Virus genome (UHGV): UHGV-0305822
Length of the DNA: 64,000 bases
Strand: one strand, 5' to 3'
From: a virus
In this document: piece by piece, positions 13,425 through 61,610 of the stretch
Position numbering within the stretch: the first letter of the stretch is position 1
How the letters are laid out: every line of letters begins with the position of its first letter
Translations under genes and position numbers: made by a program
Notes under the pieces: model-generated
Told to the model about the DNA's origin: nothing
The model's database searches: none
The model's input: only the letters and a program-made list of their open reading frames with translations

Positions 13425-16400
13425 TTAAGATGTAAACATAAGATTGAACTGGAGCTTATCGATATCGCGCGTTTGTGCTGGGTTAACCGCGTCGTACGTG
13501 GTTGCCACGTAGACCGTTAATGTCCCGTCAGCAAACGAGGTTTTCACCGGTGGCGTAGTCCCTGTCTGTCCATCAGTTACAATGACGACAGGTTGAGACG
13601 GGAGTTGATGGAACTGACCCTTAACCGCTTTATACACCAAACCAGATTGCGCTGCTAACTCCGTGTCGGTATACACGATAAACGGTGTGTCGATATCTGT
13701 CTGTTTAATGACAGTGTTCGACTCAACGTCAATCAGCTGAACAGCACCGAACTTCGTACGGTAGCTATCGTATTCATTTTTTGGAATGACAAACGTAGCA
13801 TGTACACGGACTTCTTCGGCGGGCTTAAATCCGGCGTGTTCTTTTTCCAGATAGCTGTTAGCAGTTAACGTTACTGTCTGTTCAGTCATCGTACCACCAG
13901 ACTGGTTTAACCCGTAACGAACTTGGGTTATACCTGTCGGAGCCGCAAGCCTGATTTTTAGTCTACGGTTAGCGGTACCAGGATCGCCTGGCACTCTAAC
14001 ACGCAGGCTCAAAGCCAGATATGCATTCGCACCGGTAGTCGGTTTCGTATACGCACCCAACCACTTCATATTCGCGGTTGCCGCTTGACTGTTCTCAGAA
14101 GCAGTAGCCGCTGCAACGTTCGCAGCAACCGCTTTCTGCCAGAACTGGTCAGCGCAGTTTTCATACGCTACTCTACCGATACTTTTATAACCTGCGTAGG
14201 TTTCCTGTATCGGCAACTTGGGACGTGTTGTGATCCCGCTCAACGCATTCCATCTCTGACCATCGACATACCCTGCACCATTGCTCGCAGATGCCGTGGG
14301 GGCTTTCAGCGGTTGGTTAACCAAGGTTTGAAGTGGACCCGTTTTTCGATCGTACGCCGCCGCAACGTCGTGCTGATCTCTAACGGCAGCGTGTTCTTCT
14401 AATTCACGAACCCTGCCTAGCCGTTTCACTTTATCGATGTTAATAGCAACAATGCGCTTTTTATCGGTTGTAACTGTACCAACAAATAATCGCGAAGTCG
14501 TATCCGGCAGCTTTTCCAGCCCGATCTGATATTGAGCTTTCGAACCTACAAGAGCAGCATGAACATAGAACGTCTGGTTAGCATGGTTTTCTGGGAATTC
14601 ATTGCTTAAATCCACCGACCACGTCGGTAATGTATAGCTATTACTACCGAAATCTAACCTGACCTCTTCCGTCAAATATAGAATCCAGCCTTCCGCAGTC
14701 TCCACACCGGCGATAATAACCGCCTCCCCCCCAGTTGAGAACCTGGTGTCATTAACGAACTCTTCGGCTGTATATGCGTTACCTGAACAGAAGACACGAT
14801 CTGCTTTAGAGAAAATTAGTGCCATCTTGTCCCAATTACCCGCTCCCATGTAGCAGCCTGATTCGGGATTATGTGCAGGGGCCATCTGACGCAACTGTGA
14901 CTTACCGGGAACGCGAGTCCAGCCCGACCCAGGGTCGAAGGTGTACTTCGCAGCGTAACCCAAAGCATTTAGGTCCCCGATATTCCGTATTGTCAGCGTA
15001 TAAGGCAGCCATAGACCGAAGTTTACACCGTCGGCAGAAGCAAAAATGGGCTGGCCTACACGTCGCGTTTTATTACCCGCTTCTTCCCTCAGAGACTGAT
15101 AACTTAAGCCGTAATCAAGGTCTAAGAACCAATCAACGAGTTTGAAAGTAGCCGAGTTAAAACGTAGATAACCGTTTTCTTTGGTCGGGCTCACCATGAA
15201 GTAATAGATGTCGAGGACTCGACGTCCGTTACTCAGGATTTTCATACATGAGACTTGTAATAGGTCGAACTCACAAACAGTGTTAATGCCTAGCAACCAG
15301 AGCGCAAACAACGCGTTGCCGCTTTGGTGTGCTGCACTGATGCGCTCGTTCGCGTAACCATTTGCCTGACCAGATGGTGCGCCATCGACAATCATCCTAA
15401 TCATCTTCTGGCGATCCGCTTCCTCTAACGTCAGTCGTTCTGATGACAAGGCAAAGTTACCGTAGATGTTCCGATATGGGAAGGTTTCCGCTTTCGTCAA
15501 ATACCAACCGTTTAATTGCCCGTGACGCTCCTCAGGAGTCATGCAAGCAGCCATACAGCTTAACTGTTCGTAAAGGGTTGCATCAACTTCTCGACGGTTG
15601 TTGTTCGGGCCATAACCGCTATATCCGGGAACGTCATAAGGTTTACTTGGGTCAACTTCTACTTCGATCGTATAGCGGTTACGCGGATTGGATAACCATA
15701 CTTTGTTTGAGCCACCGATACCGACAGGATGAGAAAGACCAATGGTATAGATAGAACCACGACCTTTATCCCAAGTAAATGTCGCTTCGCCTGAGGTATT
15801 GTTTGGGTTATCGTAACGCAGATAATCAAAAAACTCTTTGCCTTGCGTACTTTTAATAGTAACATTCGGCATCTGGTCCGCATCGTTAATCTGCCAGCAG
15901 GAAAGCATCATTCCTGAGACATTAGGTTTAGCATACGTCGCAAAACAACGATTGTTTGCTTGGCCGCCACCCCACTTACGACTGGTTTCTACAGTTGAGC
16001 CATCCGCGAACGATAGTCTGGTAGTATCAACCTTAATGGGGAAACGTTCGGCACCCTCTAACGTAACTCTGCCCGTTAACGTATCGATTGTGAAACTTGT
16101 TGACCATTGACGGAAATTAATCGTCGTACCGTCGGCAGCCGCAAACCACACGCTGGGGACATGATTCACACGAATAACGCTGTCGCGTACCGCACAAGCA
16201 TGGTTACATTCTGGACCGTGAACAAAGTTGTGACCGATTGTCCATTTAGCCCGTGCCTCTGGCGGGTAATACGTAAAGAACTGACCAGTCTGCGACTCTT
16301 CGGTCTTCTGGCCAATTCTTAGGCAGAGGTTATCTCCGAATTGCCCCATTTCTCCGGTTAGGGTTACACGTTCAAATTCTAACTCAGTATTGGTAGTCAA

Positions 16401-18608
16401 ATCGGCTTTACGTAAACGCCATGCCGCCACGGCATAAGCAGAGTTATTTACCGTGGAACGAAGAAGATAAACGTGATCGTCAACTAACACAACATCGTCA
16501 GCTTCTGGCCAAGGATTCCAGGTTTGTTCCACAGTACCGCTGGGGTTGCCATTACGGTATTTAGGCATTGTAACACGACATACCACCGTGTGTTTACTGT
16601 GGTCCATTGAACCATTGAACAACACCAAATAACGGTTATTATCAGAACCCAGACAAATAATCGCTTCCTGACCACCAACCAATATCGCTTTTAAGGTCAC
16701 TCCAGGATATTTACTCATCCCAACGGGATGGTATTTCACCGAAGTTTGCTGAGGGTTCACAAACACATTCGACGTATTGATATCAGCATAGCCGTAGTAA
16801 ATAGCCTCTGTACCAGGTACACCATTAGAAGCATTACGTAACGAATAAACTTTACCTTGTTGGAATCCTACAACGCCTTTCTGATAGGACTGGTTCTTTG
16901 TAAAACCTGAATAATTACCGAGTGCCGGAATGGGTAAGAAGTTTTTGTTACCGAACTTCGCCCCACCGACAGTCCACGCAGGTAAGATGGTATTCAGTTT
17001 ATCAGAGACTTTCTTAATCTCTTTTGCGAACAACCAGCCTTGACGAGACGTGACGGCTTTATCGCTCGTGGTATCAATCGCATCCCACAACTGTAAGATA
17101 CCATCCACAGTCGCGCTGCCAATCGGGACATTATCCAAATCGGCGGTAGTGTGCGTGTGCTCCTTCACACTTTTATTTTTCAGCACGTTCGCTAACGCTT
17201 TTGTTACCGGTTTAGCGATCGGCATGGTGTTATCCATCTTATCGATACCGAAATCGGTTTTCGTTAAGGTTAACACCATTTTATCGCCCGTCTTAACAAA
17301 CCCTTTACCGTTAACCGTGTAGTCATCGTCAACGTACAAGTCTAACCGGTCTTTTAACTCGGTCACCGCCTTTTGGGAAATAGCAGTGCCTAGTGCTACG
17401 GAGGTTGCGATATTCGTAATCGAAAACACCCCATAAACCGACTCGGTTGCTGTGGGAATATTCGCGTTCAACGTTAGCGGGTTAGACTGCTTCGCTGTAC
17501 CGTATGGTTTTACGGTGTCTGATGGTTTGAAATAGGCATTTGCTTCAAGTAACGTTACAGACGTCAGGTACATGTTCACCATTTCTGGTGTAACCAAATA
17601 CACAGAGTTGTAAACCGGCGCTAATACATCCTGTTCTGTCCCAGAGTGCACCCAAAGCGTATTCAGTCCCGCACTAAATTCAACCGCCAAACCCGATTCG
17701 TTGTTGTCCTGGTCCGCTTTAATCACTAGCGGTTGCGGTGAGGTAATTAACCACTTATCACCACGGATACTGATGATGTGTCCGCCTGCGGTTTTAAACG
17801 TCAGTTCGTTACCGTTCGTGCTACCCCATCGACCGTAAACAGTGCCGAGGGCTTCACCCATTAACTGATCAACGTCTGATTGCTCAATACCCGCCGAACC
17901 CATCAGCGTAGCCAACTCGTCAATCGTCAGTCCAAACGCTTTTGTCGCGTCAACAGCACGTCCCAAAACCGGAAGGGCACCAACATCAGTGGTCGTATAC
18001 TGGTGTGCGTTAGGATTAAGGTGGTGTTGGTATAACTCCTCGTCGAAAACTTTTTTACCGTTCTCGTAAATCAGGTTAGTGACTTCGGTAAACGCTGCAT
18101 CTAACTCTGTTGAACGTTGAACGATTTTCTTACGGATGTCGTTTAACGCTTTAACAACCTCATCCCTCAGAATAGCTTCTTCTAAGTTAGCAGGGGGATC
18201 GATAGGTTGTATAACCGGTGCATACGCCATTAACTCTGACCAGTCCACGTTACGTGGGTCTTTCAGGTCAGTACGAACTAAGAACTTTCCGATTTCAGAT
18301 TGTGGTACACGATACTGGCGTGCTACCCCTAAAATCTCATATTCGATTTCTGTTGCGGTCAGCAACATAAACCCGCCATAAATCTGATCTTGCTCAGCTT
18401 CTGCGAGTTCTTTAAAGTAATAGCCTAAATAGTAGTCCAACCCCTCAATCAGAGTACGACGTCCGTTAGGCGCGGTATCGTCGGCTACTGTGAGTTTTAA
18501 TCCGATACGATAAAAAGGTCCTTCAGGCGGAATGACCACATTAAATCGGTTAGGGTACGTCGCTGTGCTTAACGTACCGTTAAACTGCGCCGCGTCTTCT
18601 CTCGGCAT
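13425..18608 (-). CDS. large tail fibre protein (1727 aa)
   Basis: N-terminal PPEGPFY ... EGLDYYL anchor-like motif; internal fibre-repeat-like segments (ATESVYGV...KAVTELK). Confidence 0.65.
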   Translation of the reverse strand: MPREDAAQFNGTLSTATYPNRFNVVIPPEGPFYRIGLKLTVADDTAPNGRRTLIEGLDYYLGYYFKELAEAEQDQIYGGFMLLTATEIEYEILGVARQYRVPQSEIGKFLVRTDLKDPRNVDWSELMAYAPVIQPIDPPANLEEAILRDEVVKALNDIRKKIVQRSTELDAAFTEVTNLIYENGKKVFDEELYQHHLNPNAHQYTTTDVGALPVLGRAVDATKAFGLTIDELATLMGSAGIEQSDVDQLMGEALGTVYGRWGSTNGNELTFKTAGGHIISIRGDKWLITSPQPLVIKADQDNNESGLAVEFSAGLNTLWVHSGTEQDVLAPVYNSVYLVTPEMVNMYLTSVTLLEANAYFKPSDTVKPYGTAKQSNPLTLNANIPTATESVYGVFSITNIATSVALGTAISQKAVTELKDRLDLYVDDDYTVNGKGFVKTGDKMVLTLTKTDFGIDKMDNTMPIAKPVTKALANVLKNKSVKEHTHTTADLDNVPIGSATVDGILQLWDAIDTTSDKAVTSRQGWLFAKEIKKVSDKLNTILPAWTVGGAKFGNKNFLPIPALGNYSGFTKNQSYQKGVVGFQQGKVYSLRNASNGVPGTEAIYYGYADINTSNVFVNPQQTSVKYHPVGMSKYPGVTLKAILVGGQEAIICLGSDNNRYLVLFNGSMDHSKHTVVCRVTMPKYRNGNPSGTVEQTWNPWPEADDVVLVDDHVYLLRSTVNNSAYAVAAWRLRKADLTTNTELEFERVTLTGEMGQFGDNLCLRIGQKTEESQTGQFFTYYPPEARAKWTIGHNFVHGPECNHACAVRDSVIRVNHVPSVWFAAADGTTINFRQWSTSFTIDTLTGRVTLEGAERFPIKVDTTRLSFADGSTVETSRKWGGGQANNRCFATYAKPNVSGMMLSCWQINDADQMPNVTIKSTQGKEFFDYLRYDNPNNTSGEATFTWDKGRGSIYTIGLSHPVGIGGSNKVWLSNPRNRYTIEVEVDPSKPYDVPGYSGYGPNNNRREVDATLYEQLSCMAACMTPEERHGQLNGWYLTKAETFPYRNIYGNFALSSERLTLEEADRQKMIRMIVDGAPSGQANGYANERISAAHQSGNALFALWLLGINTVCEFDLLQVSCMKILSNGRRVLDIYYFMVSPTKENGYLRFNSATFKLVDWFLDLDYGLSYQSLREEAGNKTRRVGQPIFASADGVNFGLWLPYTLTIRNIGDLNALGYAAKYTFDPGSGWTRVPGKSQLRQMAPAHNPESGCYMGAGNWDKMALIFSKADRVFCSGNAYTAEEFVNDTRFSTGGEAVIIAGVETAEGWILYLTEEVRLDFGSNSYTLPTWSVDLSNEFPENHANQTFYVHAALVGSKAQYQIGLEKLPDTTSRLFVGTVTTDKKRIVAINIDKVKRLGRVRELEEHAAVRDQHDVAAAYDRKTGPLQTLVNQPLKAPTASASNGAGYVDGQRWNALSGITTRPKLPIQETYAGYKSIGRVAYENCADQFWQKAVAANVAAATASENSQAATANMKWLGAYTKPTTGANAYLALSLRVRVPGDPGTANRRLKIRLAAPTGITQVRYGLNQSGGTMTEQTVTLTANSYLEKEHAGFKPAEEVRVHATFVIPKNEYDSYRTKFGAVQLIDVESNTVIKQTDIDTPFIVYTDTELAAQSGLVYKAVKGQFHQLPSQPVVIVTDGQTGTTPPVKTSFADGTLTVYVATTYDAVNPAQTRDIDKLQFNLMFTS

Positions 18609-18621
18609 CGTAAAGACTCCT

Positions 18622-18664
18622 ACTTTTAAATAAAATGGATACCCCTCCCCATTACAGGGAGGGG
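18622..18664 (-). terminator. terminator hairpin between 1401-aa and 1727-aa fibre genes
   Basis: Stem CCCCTCCC/GGGAGGGG followed on minus strand by ATCCATTTTATTTAAAAG. Confidence 0.5.
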
Positions 18665-18702
18665 TTACCTACGGACACACAACTGCCCGCAGGCAGCCTG
18701 TC

Positions 18703-21700
18703 CTAAGTACGATCCCCTAACTGCTTCCCGTTAAGTTCTCGTTTCAGTACAGCCAAAATCCACTTCCACGCTTTACTCGTGATGTGGTACGGATTGCGTT
18801 TCTCCATTAAGAATTGACTTTCGCCGCTACGGAGTTCGAAGCTCTGCGCATTGAGTTGGTCTTGGCGAACACCGTTCTCGTCAGTGACATCTAACGAACA
18901 GGTAAAGTTAAGCTCGTAGCCCTCTGGATTATTGCCTGGTGGTTCTAAGACAATATAAATGTCCTGTCCTACACGTAGGTCCTTTGGCGTAAGGGTAACT
19001 GCTTTACCTGTGTCCGCGCTGGTCGAAAGCGCAAACGGCACGCTATCGATAGCTGATACATACGCGTCCTTCCCAGCATCGCCGATAATCACCTTACCCG
19101 GCCAGTTACACTTCACCGTTCCTGTCACTTTTGCAACACGGTACTGCTGTTTATCAGCACCTTGTGCAAAGCGTAAAATGAGTTTATGCCGATACCGGTT
19201 TGCGGCAGCTTTGGATGTACTCCACTCATTGTTCCAGGAGGCATGAAGTTCACCTTTCTTGGCCATCAAAGCACCACGAGACAGCTTACGTGGGAAGAAT
19301 TGTGCCGGAAGTTGCCCTTCGTGGGAAATCGCTACACTCCCTTGTCCGGTTGGAAGTGCTATTGTTTCAGTAGGGCAATAATTTAACTCGTACACGTGTG
19401 TTGTAGGATCGATCAATTTCTGATAGTAATCGCCGTCCTTACTGTCCGCTAACCAACCAACGGAAGAGTCCGTATACGATTCAAACAGTGAACGTAAATA
19501 GTGATACTTATCGATATCGATGTTACCCGTTTTTGGATCGATCAGTGCATGGTTAATAGTGAGGAAACACTTCTCACTCAAACCATTAAACGCCAAGCCC
19601 ACGCCGTCACCGGTAAAATAGTCTACCAGGTCAAATGGAAGCGTCATTTCTATTTGTCGCAAGTTGATAGTCGTTGAACCAAACTGCGAAAAAGATAGCG
19701 CTAAACGAAGTACACGAGTATTAACATTATAACGATAACGAATCATCCCACGCGGCGCATGGTTCGCGGAGATCTTATCACCGTTTGGACCCCACCCAAT
19801 TAAATCGAGTATTTCGGCGTTTGCTACTTCACCATTAAACAAAACGTCTTTAGTCGTGATTTCAACTGACGTTTCCCTTCCGCCATCCATTAACATCGAA
19901 CCGTTATTCAACTCGAAGCTCTTGTGCCAAACTTCAGAAGTCGAGCCAGCACCTACACCCACCTTACAAGTTTTACTAGTAAGGTTAATACGCACATAAC
20001 GGCGTCCCACTGTACCGCCCTGCGAGCTTGCACACAAAATAAGATCAGGTGCCGCAGACAGTGCCTTGGTCCCTGCAATGTCATCAACATCGAAAACGAA
20101 TGAGCCTTCGAACGTTGGTGCGTTATTTTCCTTCGGGTTAAATGGCGTGAACCAACAATAAGGCGTCGCGCCCTCGGTTGAGAAAATCAACTCTAAGTCA
20201 GATTTAACATTTAATCCGTGGGAATAAGAAAAAAGACCGCGACTTAAGGTACAAAGCGTTCCACCGCTTCCGCTACCTAAGGTTTTTCGATATATTAAAG
20301 CGCGGGGTTCTGGGATAGCACGGTTTAATAACGGCAACCGTGGGTTATCCGTTAACGTCCAGTCTACAGAACTGAGTCCGTGTGCTTTACGAGCGTCGAT
20401 GTGCTCACTAACCTCGGTACTTTTCCCGAAATCAAACGTGGTTTCAAAACTCACGGTTTTATTCGAGTAAGATTCACCGGCAACAATATCAACGTAGCCG
20501 ATATAACCGCGCTCAGGGTCAACTGCAATACTCTGAATTGGCTCAGTACGCGAATACAGAGAACCTGTGAGCATGTTAACGTACAGATAATGACGAATGC
20601 CTACGTGTGTTGTAACGAACTCTTGGAGAAACTCTACGTGCGTTTCAGGGCCACTGAAATAAACGGGGTAGTCACCGTCGTAAACTTCGAATTGCACTGC
20701 TGCGGATTTAGCCGTGTCGCTACACTCAGCTTTAACCGCTACGGTGTAGTTTTCAACGTCTGCTGATGTTTCATACACTGCAACAAGCGGAGACTGGCCT
20801 GTGGCTGCCTGGATACCGTTAATGTAAACTGTAACCGGGCCACCCCCTGCGGCATAAACCCAAAGCTTCGGCTGGCGTGCCCTTACCCGCGTTTTGGCCA
20901 ACACAGTAACAACTGACTGGTCACCCATCTGTGAGGCAGTTTTACCTACCGGAACAGATTGGAAACCCATTAGTGGTGGTTCTTCAATACCTGTCCAGTT
21001 AATGCCCTTACCAGCGCTCACTTTCCCCGTAGGCCAGGTCGTCTCAATTTGGTTGTTCGGTGAGAACCAGTTAAACATCGGCGTAGTTTGCAGGTCAATC
21101 GAACCTGTAACGGCGCTATCAGCTTTCGCACCGTTCAGCAAATAGAAATATTTCAAATCTTGAACGGAGATTGCCGTACCCTGACTATTAAAACGCCAGT
21201 CTGCACCTTTTACCGCAGCAAAATCCGTTACCGACCCTTCTTTCGCGTTCGCAATCGCCGCAGCAACCACATCTAAACGCGCCGAAAGTTCTTTTAAGAT
21301 GTTCGGTACCACTGCACGGTTTTCAACCAAACCGTTCTGGTTAGTTGCGTACCGACCGATACCGTAAACGGTTTGCGAGGCTTTATAAATGCCTAGTTCC
21401 GACCAATCGTGGTGGTGACCTGCATCCGCTAAACCACTAAGCGCCGTATTTAACTCGGTAGACAACGGCTTGTCAACGTCTGCGGTGTTATCCGCTTGCC
21501 CTAACCCCAGATCAGCTTTCGTGATTGTCCTGGAGCCGTCATTCATCGGCTTACCGTTAATCATGGTCGTTTTAGCCACATACCCCGATAAGTCGGTCGA
21601 GTATGGTGCTAACGAAGCCGGTGTTGCAGCAACCCCAGTCGTTTCTGTACCTTTACCTGTTTTAAGTTTAGCGACGCCTTTTTCGGCGGTTGTCGCTTTT

Positions 21701-22908
21701 GTTGGGTCGATAGTCCCCACGATAGGGTCGGCGCGAGAACCTTTACCGGTAAAGCTAATCCCATTACGACCTTCAATGTACACCTTCGAATCGTCAGGGT
21801 CGCCACCGCCACCAGAACCCGCATCTGGATCTTGTTGGTATTCCATCAACGCCGTGGTGGTCAGTAACGGGTTACCGTTCAGGGTGAGTTTGTTCATCCC
21901 TAAAGCATCGCCTGTTGACTCGATGCGTAATGTGTTTTTACCGGCACGCCAGTTGATATAACGTCCTGCACCTGTGCCTTCCAGATGTCCTACCGCTAAT
22001 ACCACAGAACCGTTGGATTTTAACGTAAAACCATCGTTGGCAAAAATGATTTCTGACTCACCGTTTTTCGAACGGAACTGTGCGCGGTTTCCTGACACCG
22101 TACAGTTAAACACGCCCCGTACTTCCGAAGAAATCCAGTGAGAGATATACGTGTCGATAACTGACTGGGGTAAACGAAACGCTTTCAGCTCATCCGTCAG
22201 TGCTTTCAACTTTAACCCGTACGCCATAAAGGTGTCGGGCGTTTTCAAGTTAACAGGATGCGCGTTAATCTGCGCGGATGTGGTTTCGTGCGGGTTCTTC
22301 GCTGCGATATGTGCTGGGTAGTTAAATGCTTCGATTTCTTTACCCAACGCAGTCACTAACGCTTTAACTTCAGCTAATTTGTCTTTAATTAGCTGGTTAG
22401 CGTCGTCGGTTTTCAATTCAATATCGTGAACTGCCGACGCTAAATATTTTTTGTTCAGCAAATCCGCCCAGGACGTTGCTGCTGGCGTCGCTGGATATAA
22501 CGATGGTCTACCGTCTAATAACAACCAGTCAGCACTGACTGGGTTATTCAAATATTTCACCAGTTCATCGAGAATGTCAACAAACGGGTCGTAGAACGTA
22601 CCGCCGAGCATTTGTCCTTCAAAGGTTACGATACCCTTGATGGATGGGTTGATAAGGTGTACCCCACAATACACGTTGGCTGCTACCGAGTCATCCAGTT
22701 CCGTCAGCTGATATTGCAGTTCGTAGTCCACCCCACGACTCAGTGGGGTGGTTGAACCTGGTTGTCTGACGACCAAATCTTCAAAGAACGGGCGGTGGTC
22801 TAAAATCACCACCCGATCGTTGTTGTTCTCTGACCCGATGATACGCTCCTCTAAGAAGTGATTCTCGGCTTTCGTCCCCCGAGGATCGTAAGGATACGCT
22901 TTCATCAA
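18703..22908 (-). CDS. large tail fibre protein (1401 aa)
   Basis: N-terminal HRPFF ... GVDYEL motif; ATTAEKGVAKLKTG...AATPASL resembles the phage fibre repeat A[ST]xxxxG..[KR]LAT...AVTP..L. Confidence 0.65.
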   Translation of the reverse strand: MMKAYPYDPRGTKAENHFLEERIIGSENNNDRVVILDHRPFFEDLVVRQPGSTTPLSRGVDYELQYQLTELDDSVAANVYCGVHLINPSIKGIVTFEGQMLGGTFYDPFVDILDELVKYLNNPVSADWLLLDGRPSLYPATPAATSWADLLNKKYLASAVHDIELKTDDANQLIKDKLAEVKALVTALGKEIEAFNYPAHIAAKNPHETTSAQINAHPVNLKTPDTFMAYGLKLKALTDELKAFRLPQSVIDTYISHWISSEVRGVFNCTVSGNRAQFRSKNGESEIIFANDGFTLKSNGSVVLAVGHLEGTGAGRYINWRAGKNTLRIESTGDALGMNKLTLNGNPLLTTTALMEYQQDPDAGSGGGGDPDDSKVYIEGRNGISFTGKGSRADPIVGTIDPTKATTAEKGVAKLKTGKGTETTGVAATPASLAPYSTDLSGYVAKTTMINGKPMNDGSRTITKADLGLGQADNTADVDKPLSTELNTALSGLADAGHHHDWSELGIYKASQTVYGIGRYATNQNGLVENRAVVPNILKELSARLDVVAAAIANAKEGSVTDFAAVKGADWRFNSQGTAISVQDLKYFYLLNGAKADSAVTGSIDLQTTPMFNWFSPNNQIETTWPTGKVSAGKGINWTGIEEPPLMGFQSVPVGKTASQMGDQSVVTVLAKTRVRARQPKLWVYAAGGGPVTVYINGIQAATGQSPLVAVYETSADVENYTVAVKAECSDTAKSAAVQFEVYDGDYPVYFSGPETHVEFLQEFVTTHVGIRHYLYVNMLTGSLYSRTEPIQSIAVDPERGYIGYVDIVAGESYSNKTVSFETTFDFGKSTEVSEHIDARKAHGLSSVDWTLTDNPRLPLLNRAIPEPRALIYRKTLGSGSGGTLCTLSRGLFSYSHGLNVKSDLELIFSTEGATPYCWFTPFNPKENNAPTFEGSFVFDVDDIAGTKALSAAPDLILCASSQGGTVGRRYVRINLTSKTCKVGVGAGSTSEVWHKSFELNNGSMLMDGGRETSVEITTKDVLFNGEVANAEILDLIGWGPNGDKISANHAPRGMIRYRYNVNTRVLRLALSFSQFGSTTINLRQIEMTLPFDLVDYFTGDGVGLAFNGLSEKCFLTINHALIDPKTGNIDIDKYHYLRSLFESYTDSSVGWLADSKDGDYYQKLIDPTTHVYELNYCPTETIALPTGQGSVAISHEGQLPAQFFPRKLSRGALMAKKGELHASWNNEWSTSKAAANRYRHKLILRFAQGADKQQYRVAKVTGTVKCNWPGKVIIGDAGKDAYVSAIDSVPFALSTSADTGKAVTLTPKDLRVGQDIYIVLEPPGNNPEGYELNFTCSLDVTDENGVRQDQLNAQSFELRSGESQFLMEKRNPYHITSKAWKWILAVLKRELNGKQLGDRT

Positions 22909-22918
22909 AAAATTCTCC

Positions 22919-25900
22919 TTAATCGCGAATGATTACCGCCTGCACTTTATTGTTGGTGTCGATAAACGACATTACGCGCTCCTTGTTAAGATAAGGAGGT
23001 ATCGGTAACGCAGCGTAATCCGCCAGGTTGTTATTAAATTCAGTTGCCACTAACGCATTAAGCGTTTCAGGGTCTGAACTGACACCGGTCAATTCCATAA
23101 CGCGCACACGATTTAATGAGGAATAGTTGCTAATATAGTCTAACAACGTACCATAGACTTTATTCGCGGTTGTGCTATCTGCCGTAGAACGGATGTTGGC
23201 ACGAACTTCATCCTCATAAAGTCCCCCTAAACCGTAGTAAATAGGGGTATACGGATCGTTAACGATAGGTGCGATATTGAACCCTGTTAGACGGTCAGTT
23301 AGAGGGATTTTCTGCGTAGCTCCCCCTGCTGCCGTGCAACTTACGTATTTATCAGTCGCAGATAAAAACACCACGATGGTATACGTAGTGCCCGCTAAGG
23401 TCAATGTTGCGTTAAACGTTATTGCGTTATTTGCAGCACGGGTGTGGGTAAACGTTACGTCAGGTTGTAACGTATTCCACGGCGCAGGCGTAACACGCTT
23501 CGTTGGTGTGAAACCTAACACTACCGATTTCCCGCTACCGAAGTTCAAACCGAACCCTGCGTAACAATATTCACCGTTGCTGTCAGTTAAACGATAACCA
23601 CGAGTGATAAGTAACGACAACCGCATAAACTCGCCGTCGGTGTTTTTCCAACAACCTAAAACAGTTTCTAGCACCGTGCCGGTTTTTGCGTTGCTTTCTG
23701 TTTCCCAACTTACCCGCATTCCTGCGTTCTTAAAAGCTGGGAACATGTTGTGGATAAACCCGTGTAGGTTATCGCTTACCCCTTTCGCGTCAAAAATCCA
23801 CTTGGATGCGAGCTGGTCGTATTTCACCCCGTCTAAAGCTTTATACTGCCCACCGGCAACATAACGCCAATCTGCTTCACCGCGTACTACTGCCTGGAGT
23901 CCAGAAGCCCAGCAAGGTGCGCCTACCGTTAAGTTAGCTAACCCAAGCGTTGCACGTGACGCGGAGCGCTGAATGTGTGCGTTGTCATCGGCTTTATGAT
24001 CTTTCAGTTCACGGAAATCACCCAACCGTGTGACATTACGCATCTCCGTAACGAACACCTCAGAAATGTCGTTAACACCAATCAACCCTACACGCGTCAT
24101 GGTATCCGTTTCAGCCTGACTGTAGCTGTCGTGGACAATATACTTCGCTTTGTTATCAACGATATCAACAAAAATCCCTGCGTAGATTTCTGTATTCAAT
24201 TTCGGAAAACGTTCACTGACGTTAATCGTCATCAACGGAACGTCGTATGTTTCACCACCGATAAAATACGTTGAAGCTGGAAGCGTGACCAGAATTTTGT
24301 CTTTGACCGTAAGGTCTATTAAGTCGTTACCAGACTCACCAAAACGTATAATGTCAAGACGTGCCTCCGAGTCAACGCCGCTGACAGCGCGCTCCAATTT
24401 TTCAATCTGGGAAGTCTGCGCCATTACCACACTCCCATCGAGTGCTAAAGTCGCATCATCCACATCCAGACCAAATTTAATCAGACCACGTTGCGCTGTG
24501 GTTGCGTTCCCAGTACCAAAAGCGGTAAACGGGTGTTGGTGAACTTTAGGCGAGTATTTATCTAACTCCGCACGTTGTGCTGTAGAAATCGGTAAATCGA
24601 CATCGGGCGTATTCGCAACGTTACCTAAACCAAAGGTAATCTTATCGATAGTAACCGAGCTGGTAAGTTGCATGTCGTTAATGTACGATTTAACTGCAAC
24701 TAATTTACCGGTGAACTCCGCATCGAGTTTTTCAATCAGTGCTGGCGTTGCTGCAAGGTTTTCAGCGGTACCGAACTCATCGGTCAACTGCCAAGCTGCC
24801 AGAGCTGTTGTATCGGTCGCGGTAGGGAGAATAAAGGTCGCTACGAACGGCGAGGCTTTTATCCCGCTACCGGTGATCGTAACCGTTGTTGTCGAGTTTG
24901 CGTAGAATAAACCTGTACCACCTGCGGTATTGCCTGGTAGATACGGGGCCACGGTGGTGGGGTCTAAAAGTTTTTTACCACGCCACTGTAACCCTCGATC
25001 ATCAGGATACAACATAAGCTGGTTAGTACCTGCTTGGAACGTTACGGGGTTGTTACCCACGTTAACATCAGTAGAACCTTGACCGATGAACTTAATGGAT
25101 TTCGGATCAACGACAAACTGAGCGCCTAAACGTGTTTCGTCAACAACATCCGGTGCTTTCTTAATGGTAACCGTGTTACCTTTGTTTTGCGAACTAATGG
25201 TAACGGCGTCGGCAACATTATTGATCAGCGATTTAAAGTGGTGCTGATTCTCTAATGCTTCTAACGCGGCGTCCATGTTATTGAAGTTAATCCGACCGCT
25301 ATACGTTTTACTGTTTACGGTAATAACGACGTCAAACACATTCCCTGTACGCTTCAGTTGAAAACGTAGCGTAAAATCCCCATCCGGTATTGCCGGATTA
25401 GGAGCTTGTGAAATATACCGAACTGCCGGTACCGGACTCCCGTAACCGTGCAACGCCAGTTCGATAGTAAGAGTACCGGACCAGACTTCACCGCTAATCT
25501 CTACGTACTTACCGGAGTTACTACCAGGATTTTCGTAGAAACGTAAACCAACCCTACCGACCGCTTCATTACCAGACGCTGTTTTACGACCAGTAACAAT
25601 AAAGTCTATATCTTGCAGGTTGGCAGGCACCGCATTAAAGTTAGCACTGAAACCGCTTTTCGCTCCTGTGTAACGAAGCGCGCCGTGATATCTGTGACCT
25701 CTACTAACATAGCTTTCGCTAAAATAAGGACTCACGTATTTCGACATCGAAACCGGATCAACTTCCGTCGTGAACGAAGTAAAACCCGGAAGTGTGGTAA
25801 TCGTGCCGTTAACGTTCTTGCTCGCCGATTCACGAAGCAGTTTTTTCTGTGCGGTTAACGTTGCTTGTGTTGGGTACTTAGCATTAACGTAATCCGTTAA

Positions 25901-27241
25901 CTGCTGTTTCGTTTTCCCGTAAGCTAACGCGGCATCCGACGCAATACCATTCAGCTCTAACGCACGGATCGGACCCCACGTATCGGTGTGCGGGTTGTCC
26001 TTACGTGTAACGTGTTCGTGTGCAGGCGCGTTACGATACAGCTGCTCAACTAACTGATGGTATTTGACTATTAACTGGTAGACATCGTTATCGACGTCAG
26101 GTTCTGGTGCGCCGGGTAAAGAACGAATTTGAATATAATCGTTTTCGGCCGCATACCAGTTTAAATTAATGTTCGTTTTAAACTTCAACCATTTAGCAAC
26201 ATCCGTTTTCGAATACCCTGCCGAGAACTCATCAGGCGGTGTATCGACATTGAATGTGTAATCCATGGTCTGTTTATTTGTTTTTACTACGATGACGTAA
26301 ACACCGTTTCCGGGTTGACGGGTTACACTAAAATCGATATCGTTTTTTAACTCATCGTCAGTTAAACCGTTGATTAACGTATAATCGTAGTTTGTTGAAC
26401 CGCTACCAATAGCGACCGTTAAGACCAGTGAGATTTTGCGCTGTTTTAGCTGCAACCGTAGAATACTTGCACCGCCGTTAGCATAACAGAGCATCCAATC
26501 GATCTGTTCGTTTGGATTCAATTTCGTCATGTCTGGCAGAATAGCAGGAATTCTGTGTTTCACTGACAGGGCGTAGTCGTTAAAGGTTGCAGTTTTATAA
26601 CTCAAGCTATAACGATGACGGGTAGTGTTGTAGGTGAAGCCACCTTTATTGTCGTATACGGCATACTGCTCGGAAGTGATAACCTTGCTATTAGCACGGT
26701 ATTCTAAATCCAGGGTATTGCGTGCGATGGGGTTAAGTCGACTCACGACTTCCCCTAACGAATCGCCTAATCCAGCAATAGCCTGCATTAATTCCAGTTC
26801 ACCTTTCCAATTCTCCCAATCGAACTGGATATCGACCGGCGGAAAGTAAACGTCCCCGATGACGGTGTCCCACTGACACGCAGACGGGTATTTATCTTTA
26901 TTGAGTTCGCGTTCTGCGGTAATCTGTTGTTGGGTAGCCTGACCACAACCAACGGCGTGGTAATCTACCGTAAAATTCGATTTGTATTTGTCATTAACAA
27001 TCCAAATCATCCCGTGAATGAGATAGGCTGTGCGCAACATACCGGTCTCGTACGGGTGTGTAATAACGTAATCGTCGCCTAAGGTCAGTGTTTTGCCGCC
27101 GCTCTTGACCACCAGGGATGTGGTGAAAAAAGGGGCGTGGGCAGGTACCAACATTCGGTATTTCGTACCAATGACGGCGACCGCTTCACCGGTTATTTTA
27201 TTCCCCGGTTTTTTGAAGTGTGGGTCTAGGACGACAGCCAT
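22919..27241 (-). CDS. large tail fibre protein (1440 aa)
   Basis: N-terminal HAPFF ... GDDYVI motif; TTAQRGLIKFG fibre-repeat-like segment; only 10 nt from next gene (co-transcribed). Confidence 0.65.
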   Translation of the reverse strand: MAVVLDPHFKKPGNKITGEAVAVIGTKYRMLVPAHAPFFTTSLVVKSGGKTLTLGDDYVITHPYETGMLRTAYLIHGMIWIVNDKYKSNFTVDYHAVGCGQATQQQITAERELNKDKYPSACQWDTVIGDVYFPPVDIQFDWENWKGELELMQAIAGLGDSLGEVVSRLNPIARNTLDLEYRANSKVITSEQYAVYDNKGGFTYNTTRHRYSLSYKTATFNDYALSVKHRIPAILPDMTKLNPNEQIDWMLCYANGGASILRLQLKQRKISLVLTVAIGSGSTNYDYTLINGLTDDELKNDIDFSVTRQPGNGVYVIVVKTNKQTMDYTFNVDTPPDEFSAGYSKTDVAKWLKFKTNINLNWYAAENDYIQIRSLPGAPEPDVDNDVYQLIVKYHQLVEQLYRNAPAHEHVTRKDNPHTDTWGPIRALELNGIASDAALAYGKTKQQLTDYVNAKYPTQATLTAQKKLLRESASKNVNGTITTLPGFTSFTTEVDPVSMSKYVSPYFSESYVSRGHRYHGALRYTGAKSGFSANFNAVPANLQDIDFIVTGRKTASGNEAVGRVGLRFYENPGSNSGKYVEISGEVWSGTLTIELALHGYGSPVPAVRYISQAPNPAIPDGDFTLRFQLKRTGNVFDVVITVNSKTYSGRINFNNMDAALEALENQHHFKSLINNVADAVTISSQNKGNTVTIKKAPDVVDETRLGAQFVVDPKSIKFIGQGSTDVNVGNNPVTFQAGTNQLMLYPDDRGLQWRGKKLLDPTTVAPYLPGNTAGGTGLFYANSTTTVTITGSGIKASPFVATFILPTATDTTALAAWQLTDEFGTAENLAATPALIEKLDAEFTGKLVAVKSYINDMQLTSSVTIDKITFGLGNVANTPDVDLPISTAQRAELDKYSPKVHQHPFTAFGTGNATTAQRGLIKFGLDVDDATLALDGSVVMAQTSQIEKLERAVSGVDSEARLDIIRFGESGNDLIDLTVKDKILVTLPASTYFIGGETYDVPLMTINVSERFPKLNTEIYAGIFVDIVDNKAKYIVHDSYSQAETDTMTRVGLIGVNDISEVFVTEMRNVTRLGDFRELKDHKADDNAHIQRSASRATLGLANLTVGAPCWASGLQAVVRGEADWRYVAGGQYKALDGVKYDQLASKWIFDAKGVSDNLHGFIHNMFPAFKNAGMRVSWETESNAKTGTVLETVLGCWKNTDGEFMRLSLLITRGYRLTDSNGEYCYAGFGLNFGSGKSVVLGFTPTKRVTPAPWNTLQPDVTFTHTRAANNAITFNATLTLAGTTYTIVVFLSATDKYVSCTAAGGATQKIPLTDRLTGFNIAPIVNDPYTPIYYGLGGLYEDEVRANIRSTADSTTANKVYGTLLDYISNYSSLNRVRVMELTGVSSDPETLNALVATEFNNNLADYAALPIPPYLNKERVMSFIDTNNKVQAVIIRD

Positions 27242-27309
27242 TATCTACTCCTATAGTCCGTGGGCGTCGAAGTTCATACTATGACTTGAATCTATAGAGG
27301 AAAAGAGCT

Positions 27310-30005: not shown

Positions 30006-30325
30006 CGGGACGTTCCTTAGATCGGAATTGATTTCAGATATATTTTACTTAAGTGAATAGGGACTGAACTGGTACTTCAGTCCCTACGGACACGTTACCC
30101 TTTTAGTACCTTTCGTTAAAGGTTACTAAAAATTACATTATGTCCCTTTATTCTGCTACTCGGGATACCGGTAGGGGGTAGGGGGCATTATGTATACGGA
30201 TATAAATAGCGGAGGTATACGGAGTATACCGACATACTCTTCCCAGAGGAACGTAGTGACTTCCTTATACCTCTTTTACAATCCATAATAATAGCCTTCC
30301 CTTCATTGGGATTAGCGAGTAAATC

Positions 30326-34298: not shown

Positions 34299-34391
34299 GT
34301 TCGTTAATATTAAAAATAATTTCAGATATATATTACCTAGGTGAGAGTACAAAAGCTCTCACTTAATAAAACCATTTTAGGAGTATTAAAG

Positions 34392-51795: not shown

Positions 51796-52457
51796 TCGTT
51801 TATAGTGAGGTCTTGTCAAAAGCCCCTCGGTTTTTACAAACTCACTTTATGTATAACGCACGGCAGTATTGGGGCTTTAAAGCCCCTTACTCCGAAGATT
51901 GGGAAGTTGTGGAAAAGTTAGCATTTGTGTTTTCTCTTTCGTTGTTGTGGGAGATCATTGCACTATACAACGCAGGTTGTGATATCCCGGAGAACGGCTT
52001 TTTCCAACAACACCTATTCCAAAAATTCACAGCATCGGTAGAAAATCATGAAGTGCGCAAGGAGTGTATCGGCTACGCCGAGCATTCTGAAGAATTGAGA
52101 AAGATTTCCAAATTAGTTATCACGCGGACATGGGCTGAATTCGAAACTTACCCCGAAAAAATAATTTGGTTTAATCGTGAACAGTTTATTAAAGAGGCAG
52201 TCAGTCAACATCCCGTTCGATTAATCGTGTTAAAGCCGTCCGATCTCGCCTTACGCCACACCTATTCGTCTCCAGAGGAAATCGTTTTTTCCTCTGGAAC
52301 AACAGATTATGGTATTTTTAAACAAGGAGATTCTTGGATTCTTCCACACGATTTAGACGGGTATTTGCTCAGTAGCGATCAAATACATTCGGGTTATGAC
52401 TCACAGGTGAAGGAGTTTACAGTCGATCCTTTTTTCGCTAAAAATATTCTTAGATAG
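51789..52457 (+). CDS. hypothetical protein (222 aa)
   Basis: ATG overlapping upstream stop. Confidence 0.5.
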   Translation: MLIVYSEVLSKAPRFLQTHFMYNARQYWGFKAPYSEDWEVVEKLAFVFSLSLLWEIIALYNAGCDIPENGFFQQHLFQKFTASVENHEVRKECIGYAEHSEELRKISKLVITRTWAEFETYPEKIIWFNREQFIKEAVSQHPVRLIVLKPSDLALRHTYSSPEEIVFSSGTTDYGIFKQGDSWILPHDLDGYLLSSDQIHSGYDSQVKEFTVDPFFAKNILR

Positions 52458-52493
52458 ATATTATCCAGGTGTAACACCATTGGAGTTATTAAA

Positions 52494-61539: not shown

Positions 61540-61610
61540 TCTTACTACCTCAATTTCAAAAAGAAGTCAGACAGATATTATCTACGTGAGACATTCTTTA
61601 GGAGTGAATT

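Follow-up and report, generated by a model that had tools for sequence, protein, structure and literature searches.

An 11-base sequence, GTGTCCGTAGG on the minus strand, occurs exactly twice in the stretch of phage DNA analysed here (64 kb in length, called the window below), at 18668-18678 (copy 1, site 1) and at 30083-30093 (copy 2, site 2). We consider it likely that the two copies are an accidental identity between two different structured spacers, with copy 1 forming part of a pair of alternative hairpins beside a terminator and copy 2 lying at the hairpin of an early promoter. Judged from aligned orthologues, the conserved bistable RNA beside the terminator at site 1 is a real element, and it has no match in Rfam. 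The sequence-only reading that drew attention to the repeat was correct in its sequence facts. Copy 1 ends 60 nt before the ATG (18608) of a 1727-aa gene, copy 2 ends 78 nt before the ATG (30005) of a 321-aa gene whose product matches a baseplate protein, and a GC-rich hairpin touches each copy. The excess over chance that this reading implied did not hold.

The window belongs to an SPN3US/Erskinevirus-like jumbo phage of the Chimalliviridae. The genera Erskinevirus and Seoulvirus are members of this family of jumbo phages, which form a nucleus and have their own multisubunit RNA polymerases (PMC7598289), and the phage is a nucleus-forming jumbo phage close to both genera. Its nearest sequenced relatives are the Erwinia phages Asesino, phiEaH2 and Stratton (Erskinevirus) and the Salmonella phage SPN3US (Seoulvirus), to which the DNA identity of the window is only about 70-75% and that of the baseplate protein 60-73%. 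Near-identical genomes of 220-228 kb were found in IMG/VR and in metagenomes. Three long minus-strand genes (1727, 1401 and 1440 aa; 13425-27241) fall into PHROG families of giant virion structural proteins; since they share N-terminal and internal PHROG matches, they are regarded as partly paralogous. Copy 1 is located in the 94-nt spacer from the 1401-aa to the 1727-aa gene, which are co-transcribed genes for giant virion proteins. Among the junctions of the giant genes, only 1401/1727 carries a terminator, and the 1440/1401 junction measures 10 nt. Copy 2 is located in a 320-nt divergent spacer. A scan for tRNA and tmRNA found none. Rfam at gathering thresholds gave no match across the whole window, and the best permissive matches, of 18 bits (site 1) and 23 bits (site 2), were far under threshold. 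A literature search found no transcriptome data for the SPN3US/Erskinevirus-like clade.

The repeat itself does not exceed chance, as 1,756 distinct 11-mers recur in the 64-kb window. Counting of near matches revealed no excess in the window either. With one mismatch allowed, there were 2 matches against 0.9 expected, a count equalled in 25 of 100 shuffles; with two mismatches allowed, there were 9 against 14 expected. These counts cover the 64-kb window of a genome of about 225 kb. Among the 43 intergenic spacers of the window, 22 pairs share an 11-mer. Eighteen of these pairs fall into obvious classes, namely ribosome-binding sites, A/T runs, terminator stems and one promoter, which leaves four unexplained pairs, this 11-mer included, against 1.9 ± 1.3 expected from shuffles. 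In addition, about 34% of the intergenic bases lie in, or at most 3 nt from, a hairpin of at least 7 bp. With about one third of the intergenic bases so placed, the abutment of an 11-mer on a hairpin comes cheaply. When the context was counted (both copies intergenic, both in the same orientation to the downstream gene and both touching a hairpin), the probability of coincidence was roughly estimated at 0.1-0.2. At this value chance is not overwhelming by statistics alone; the decisive evidence is comparative. No similarity was found beyond the 11-mer, and the flanks of the two copies diverge immediately.

On the minus strand, the elements of site 1 follow each other in the order stop codon TAG, hairpin B, 11-mer, TAA, terminator T, tail, ribosome-binding site and ATG. 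The TAG (18705-18703) ends the 1401-aa gene, and hairpin B (18673-18703) begins at its last base; B has an inner helix CTGCC/GGCAG around the loop TGCG and an outer helix GGACA/TGTCC. The 5' strand of hairpin A (CCTGCGGGCA, 18684-18693) is composed of the last two bases of the B 5' arm, the B loop and the first four bases of the B 3' arm, whereas its 3' strand is 18668-18677 of the 11-mer. Bases 18673-18677 of the 11-mer (TGTCC) alternatively close hairpin B. The terminator scan placed hairpin T (ACCCCTCCC/GGGAGGGGT, loop TGTAATG) at 18641-18665 on the minus strand, three bases past hairpin A. It is followed by the T-rich tail ATCCATTTTATTT (18628-18640) and then by the ribosome-binding site GTAGGAGTC (GTAGGAG) and ATG of the 1727-aa virion gene (18606-18623). 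In most relatives, pairing of the start of the tail, TCCGTTTT, with AGGACGGA near the stop codon is possible and would give a helix P1 and thereby a predicted three-way junction. P1 was 83% paired against 51-66% in slid controls, showed little covariation and has only 3 bp in the window itself. A firmly conserved closing helix was rejected on this weak comparative support.

Two predicted pairings involve the sequence past the terminator. The TCC of a conserved TATCC is predicted to pair with the Shine-Dalgarno GGA of the 1727-aa gene (18628-18640 with 18615-18623), and the U-run past T would pair with the A-run before this Shine-Dalgarno. The TCC is kept in 16 of 16 orthologues, the preceding T being A in pEa6 and Huxley. 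In read-through RNA, this weak hairpin would cover part of the ribosome-binding site of the 1727-aa gene.

The orthologues of the site-1 spacer came from phages of Erskinevirus, Seoulvirus, Machinavirus and Wellingtonvirus and from uncultured contigs. Site 1 is conserved, with compensatory changes, across these four genera, and its 11-mer is identical in 13 sister genomes (5 from IMG/VR and 8 metagenomic), down to 90% protein identity. The Derbicusvirus phages have abutting genes at this position, without the element, and Vibrio phage pVa-21 has an unrelated terminator there. A gapped-pattern search of IMG/VR for copies of site 1 returned mostly chance matches and added one orthologue; since it missed some known matches, it was left out of the counting.

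Both helices are supported by covariation. First, helix A pairs the 11-mer with an upstream YYTRCGRRC, and 98.6% of its cells are paired in the 16 orthologues, compared with at most 40% in slid controls. Three of its pairs are changed on both sides, and the variants include GTCCGTAGG/CCTACGGGC, GTCCGCAAG/CTTGCGGGC, GTTCGCAAG/CTTGCGAGC and CCCGCAAG/CTTGCGGG. RNAalifold, run unguided, predicted helix A together with terminator T. Second, the inner stem of helix B is 95.7% paired (slid controls, at most 44%) with four of its five pairs double-changed, as seen in CTGCC/GGCAG, ACGTC/GACGT, CTGTC/GACAG, CACGC/GCGTG and CGCGC/GCGCG. Helix B begins 0-3 nt past the stop codon across the relatives, and its loop is complementary to the downstream 11-mer in every lineage. 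The G-U pairs present in helices A and B indicate that the folding strand is the sense (minus-strand) RNA. Some bases (alignment columns 15-16 and 21-23) belong to both A and B, which makes the two mutually exclusive. Helix B is closed by the GTCC half of the 11-mer and helix A by all of it. Most changes in the 11-mer would thus call for two or three compensating ones, and this accounts for its strong conservation. The bases of the site-1 11-mer covary with the partner strand, indicating that pairing rather than sequence is conserved.

The balance between A and B was predicted by folding in silico. For the segment that runs from the stop codon up to and including the motif, the minimum-energy fold is hairpin B in 12 of 13 phages (-13.8 to -18.4 kcal/mol); in SPN3US, the best fold is a variant of hairpin B that is shifted and longer (-19.0). 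Nine of these segments were re-folded with shuffle controls and gave z values of -2.6 to -3.8. When the 14 nt from the stop codon were blocked in silico, A formed in 13 of 13 phages. With the terminator present and the U-run absent, B plus T is predicted to dominate in Asesino and pEa29, the two conformations are roughly balanced in pEa6 and c3300011862, and the remaining phages folded already favour A. The addition of the first four U increased the predicted share of A in all phages folded (nine) except the window, for which it stays near 0.6; the increase often came via the AGGACGGA/TCCGTTTT closing helix. In Asesino, the predicted probability of A rose from 0.01 to 0.89 upon this addition.

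The terminator next to these helices is of a known kind. Passages of PMC10914365 give the terminator motif of phiKZ, mapped by ONT-cappable-seq, as BCCYCCCCHWWDGGGRRGGBYTTAT..., and T with its tail fits the pattern CCYCCCC...GGGRRGG followed by TTAT. T has in common with the phiKZ-type terminators the C-rich 5' arm, the G-rich 3' arm, a T-rich tail starting with TAT and a position just past a gene; it differs from them in that a conserved bistable hairpin pair, starting from the stop codon, precedes it at a distance of 3 nt. Its stem is kept by compensatory changes (CCCCTCCC/GGGAGGGG, CCCCACCC/GGGTGGGG, CCGCCC/GGGCGG and GCCGTCCC/GGGACGGC), and most other spacers of the window carry the same type of terminator. 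We infer from these features that T is active as a phiKZ-type intrinsic terminator. No TATG is present on the coding strand between the stop codon (18703) and the ATG (18608), so the 1727-aa gene is probably expressed by read-through of T.

The nascent transcript is predicted to be folded as B by the time the polymerase arrives at the terminator. A would take over once the tail is present, or once the 14 bases from the stop are occupied, for example by a terminating ribosome, and in most relatives the weak closing helix, which pairs bases near the stop with the tail, would then join it. A bistable module of this kind may set the read-through into the 1727-aa gene and/or protect the 3' end of the upstream message. 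A fuller model would make site 1 an undescribed class of cis-regulatory RNA of nucleus-forming jumbo phages, with B in the nascent RNA replaced by A and the closing helix once the RNA is complete or a ribosome is on the stop codon. The module would then adjust how often the phage's own non-virion RNA polymerase reads through, how stable the upstream message is, or both, and, hence, the ratio of two giant paralogous virion proteins. We offer this model as a conjecture that is, in its full form, rather unlikely.

Comparison with trp/pyrBI-type attenuators shows similarities and differences. Site 1 resembles them in that mutually exclusive helices, here each supported by covariation, adjoin a terminator, and in that the first helix starts from a stop codon and could be displaced by a ribosome, the in silico block of 14 nt flipping B to A. 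Unlike in attenuators, the terminator stem is none of the alternatives, no ribosome-binding site is sequestered, and the element follows a structural gene of 1401 codons instead of a leader peptide. The T stem and the ribosome-binding site are outside A and B, and T forms in all predicted folds. Since neither A nor B overlaps the T stem, the logic is not that of a classical attenuator. Transcription in the Chimalliviridae takes place in the phage nucleus, away from the ribosomes, which makes a classical coupled attenuator unlikely.

A plainer account is that site 1 is a compound terminator or RNA-stability module that protects the upstream message, contains no switch and has an A/B overlap of no regulatory meaning. 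We regard this account as possible but doubtful. The independence of T from both helices agrees with it, nearly every spacer of the phage has a terminator hairpin, and intercistronic protective hairpins are common in polycistronic operons. However, two exclusive helices are each kept by compensatory changes across four genera, and this is difficult to account for if only one of the conformations is in use. The complementarity between the B loop and the downstream motif in every lineage also speaks against a plain stability module, as does the result of a search with a covariance model (R1, described below), in which no further terminator of the window or of Asesino showed the A/B arrangement.

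Several other explanations of site 1 were rejected. For programmed stop-codon read-through or a coded C-terminal extension, the frame would be lengthened by 16 codons in the window, as against 10 in Asesino, and the loop lengths of 5, 6 or 7 nt differ by non-multiples of three. An H-type pseudoknot, in which the B loop pairs downstream while B stays intact, is incompatible with a loop of 4 nt and with the consumption of B stem bases by A. Anti-Shine-Dalgarno pairing of the A 5' arm with the ribosome-binding site of the 1727-aa gene showed no consistent covariation; this ribosome-binding site varies (GTAGGAG, TTAGGAG, GCAGGAG and GTGGGAG) independently of the 11-mer. Finally, N4-type hairpin promoters have stems of 5-7 bp and loops of 3 nt, occur in several copies and serve a single-subunit polymerase, whereas the loops here are 4-7 nt long, the element is single-copy and the polymerases are multisubunit.

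The second copy lies in a different setting. Read on the plus strand, copy 2 (CCTA/CGGACAC) is made up of the last four bases (CCTA) of the 3' arm of a hairpin, H2, and a 7-nt linker, CGGACAC, that varies among the sister genomes. H2 (TAGGGACTGAA/TTCAGTCCCTA; 30058-30086, plus strand) covaries in the sister genomes, where its stem has four variants, all Watson-Crick. Nine nucleotides upstream of it is an early-promoter-like 14-mer, CAGATATATTTTAC (30035-30048, plus strand), which matches CAGATATATWTTAC perfectly and is kept at site 2 in five of five sister genomes. There are two perfect matches to CAGATATATWTTAC in the window and eight in Asesino, all on the plus strand. The second copy in the window (34323-34336, plus strand) is followed by the hairpin GTGAGAG...CTCTCAC and is conserved across SPN3US-like phages. 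The neighbours of seven Asesino copies were checked: all seven are 60-120 nt before the next plus-strand gene, six being intergenic and one being in the 3' end of a small annotated ORF. Each of the eight Asesino copies has a hairpin about 1-10 nt downstream, often starting with TAGGTGAGA, which is the place that H2 occupies at site 2.

AT-rich early-promoter blocks, centred near -10, are described for chimalliviruses in PMC7598289 and in passages of PMC8244752. Site 2 resembles these promoters of the virion RNA polymerase in that a clade-specific block, CAGATATATWTTAC, recurs upstream of plus-strand gene clusters; it is unlike them in that the consensus here comes from sequence recurrence only. 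Given its covarying stem and its placement like that of the hairpins after other copies of CAGATATATWTTAC, we assign H2 to the plus-strand early transcript. It is most likely the 5'-proximal hairpin of a transcript that runs away from the baseplate gene, belonging to the plus-strand early promoter and not, as originally read, to the minus-strand baseplate gene. In bacteria, ompA-type 5'-terminal stem-loops stabilise mRNAs. H2 and its counterparts would likewise lie a few bases from the 5' end of the early transcript, the difference being that the position of this end at H2 is deduced. A role like that of the short-RNA terminator within a phiKZ 5' leader (in passages of PMC10914365) is equally possible for H2. 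A hairpin right after the early block is not described in the passages of PMC10914365 and PMC8244752, and the consistent succession of block and hairpin is, as a pattern in sequence, an observation of the present analysis.

The spacer of site 2 has several further features. A second hairpin (AGTACCTTT-CGTT-AAAGGTTACT on the plus strand) is located at 30105-30127. Between H2 and this hairpin, the sister genomes carry a small hairpin, a ribosome-binding site and a plus-strand micro-ORF of 25 codons, and the window lacks this segment through a deletion that falls between about 30094 and 30104. The conserved micro-ORF reads MSTEKKSGLDEVIELFKRYNPAIPR or MFAEQKDGIEEVVRLFRHYSPYLPR, lies about 130-210 nt upstream of the baseplate ATG on the opposite strand, and is frameshifted within an A-run in c113438. 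The 7-nt loop of H2 (30069-30075) is inverted among near-identical genomes, reading CTGGTAC in the window and GTACCAG in IMG/VR 3300029126 and c113438; the loop GTGCGAA of one sister and CTCGCAC of two others depart from exact reverse complementarity at a single base. Either recurrent flipping between the 11-bp inverted arms or an artefact of assembly is suggested by these inversions. The 245-aa plus-strand gene beside site 2 showed no homology with Asesino gp195. A block of the spacer at 30170-30262 (minus reading) is conserved across genera and consists of AAGGAAGTCACTACGTTCC ... (A/T)TGTCGG, a covarying hairpin, CCTCCGCT, about 20 nt and CCCCCTACCCCC. Its hairpin is GGTATAC/GTATACC in the window, GGTGAC/GTCACC in Erskinevirus, GGTATCC/GGATACC in SPN3US and GGTACTC/GAGTACC in SPAsTU. 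A second, related AT-rich block, (C/T)AGA(T/C)AGATATTATC, was observed upstream of plus-strand genes at 52451-52465 and 61568-61582 (both plus strand) in the window and at many Asesino sites, such as 16336, 24555, 29794, 73980, 111655 and 242441; it could represent either a form of the CAGATATATWTTAC class or a separate class of promoter.

Comparison across genomes separates the two copies. In three of five sister genomes, copy 2 is replaced by GTGCCTATAGG or GTGCCCATAGG (GTGCCYATAGG), and the genomes with an altered copy 2 keep site 1 unchanged. The closest sister, c113438, shares with the window the exact 11-mer at site 2. Upstream of the baseplate gene of Stratton, Asesino, SPN3US and SPAsTU, both the motif and the hairpin of site 2 are absent, and the spacer there is 177 nt long in these four phages and others. 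The further relatives checked also had no counterpart of site 2 upstream of the baseplate gene. The 9-mer core, GTCCGTAGG, occurs once in the complete 246-kb genome of Asesino against about 1.9 expected, and this single occurrence is the site-1 orthologue. The covariance model R1, built from 16 site-1 orthologues, scored 89 bits at site 1 of the window and 96.5 bits at the Asesino orthologue. No other score in the window or Asesino exceeded 15.4 bits, and site 2 was unreported even at E ≤ 10. A diverged copy of the site-1 element at site 2 was rejected since R1 misses it. Taken together, the single-copy core, the changed copy 2 and the result with R1 indicate that the 11-mer is neither a genome-wide motif nor shared by the two sites. 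One conserved motif for two late genes, as first proposed, is not supported. The accompanying idea of a regulatory or RNA element found partial support at site 1, in the form of a conserved structured and probably regulatory RNA with alternative hairpins and a terminator.

The identity of the copies might instead be historical: micro-gene-conversion or template switching between the two spacers, both rich in hairpins, would have produced copy 2 as a short and recent duplicate of site 1 that has no function. The restriction of the exact site-2 11-mer to the window and c113438 is consistent with such an origin, and the site-2 spacer is recombinationally active, as its hairpin loop is flipped between strains and a segment of about 100 nt is deleted. 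However, the identity ends sharply at 11 nt between dissimilar flanks. TAGG, which makes up 4 of the 11 bases, is conserved hairpin stem in all sisters, so only about three substitutions separate the variants of copy 2, and chance sharing at this length is expected for about two pairs per window. We therefore consider such a conversion very unlikely, and accidental identity the better account of the two copies.

The reading of the 11-mer as a late promoter was also examined. The phiKZ-type late promoter has a TATG overlapping the transcription start, with all four bases required (PMC7598289). The 11-mer resembles it in lying upstream of late structural genes and lacks its two other properties, the TATG and the recurrence of the signal. 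No TATG was found in or beside either copy on the coding strand; with this absence at both sites, and with the core 9-mer being single-copy in Asesino, the late-promoter reading is not supported. The baseplate genes of other genera carry CGTAAAAAAG..TAGTATGA immediately ahead of the ribosome-binding site. The TATG promoter next to the baseplate ATG is missing in the lineage of the window and, given this loss, copy 2 may be contained in a long late 5' leader. Elsewhere in the window, overlapping divergent TATG sites that resemble late promoters (AGTATGAAC on the minus strand and ACTATGAC on the plus strand) are present at 27272-27285, between the 1440-aa and the 420-aa genes.

That the 11-mer is nevertheless a real shared cis-element acting on the minus strand upstream of both structural genes (as late promoter, processing site or target of a phage protein), with the hairpin as part of the signal, is extremely unlikely. 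In its favour, the copies agree at 11 of 11 positions in the same orientation to the downstream gene, each runs straight into a hairpin and, past it, into a TATYCAYTT stretch of loose similarity, both have a GGACA upstream that can pair with TGTCC, and their identity persists in two sister genomes. Against it, copy 2 differs at 3 of 11 positions in three sisters with copy 1 unaltered, other genera have no site 2, the covariance model misses site 2, the core is single-copy in Asesino, neither site has a TATG, and what covaries at site 1 shows conservation of pairing and not of sequence.

The finding of a shared motif thus fails, because exact repeats of an 11-mer, even beside hairpins, are expected by chance among spacers filled with terminators. 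Under copy 1 lie two competing, covarying helices beside a terminator, which are found in four genera of the Chimalliviridae and are absent from Rfam. The passages of the literature consulted do not deal with how termination and read-through of the non-virion RNA polymerase are controlled, and the element of site 1 is a possible test case for this. At site 2, the architecture of an early-promoter-like block plus a hairpin allows the early transcription units of SPN3US-like and Erskinevirus-like phages to be annotated better.
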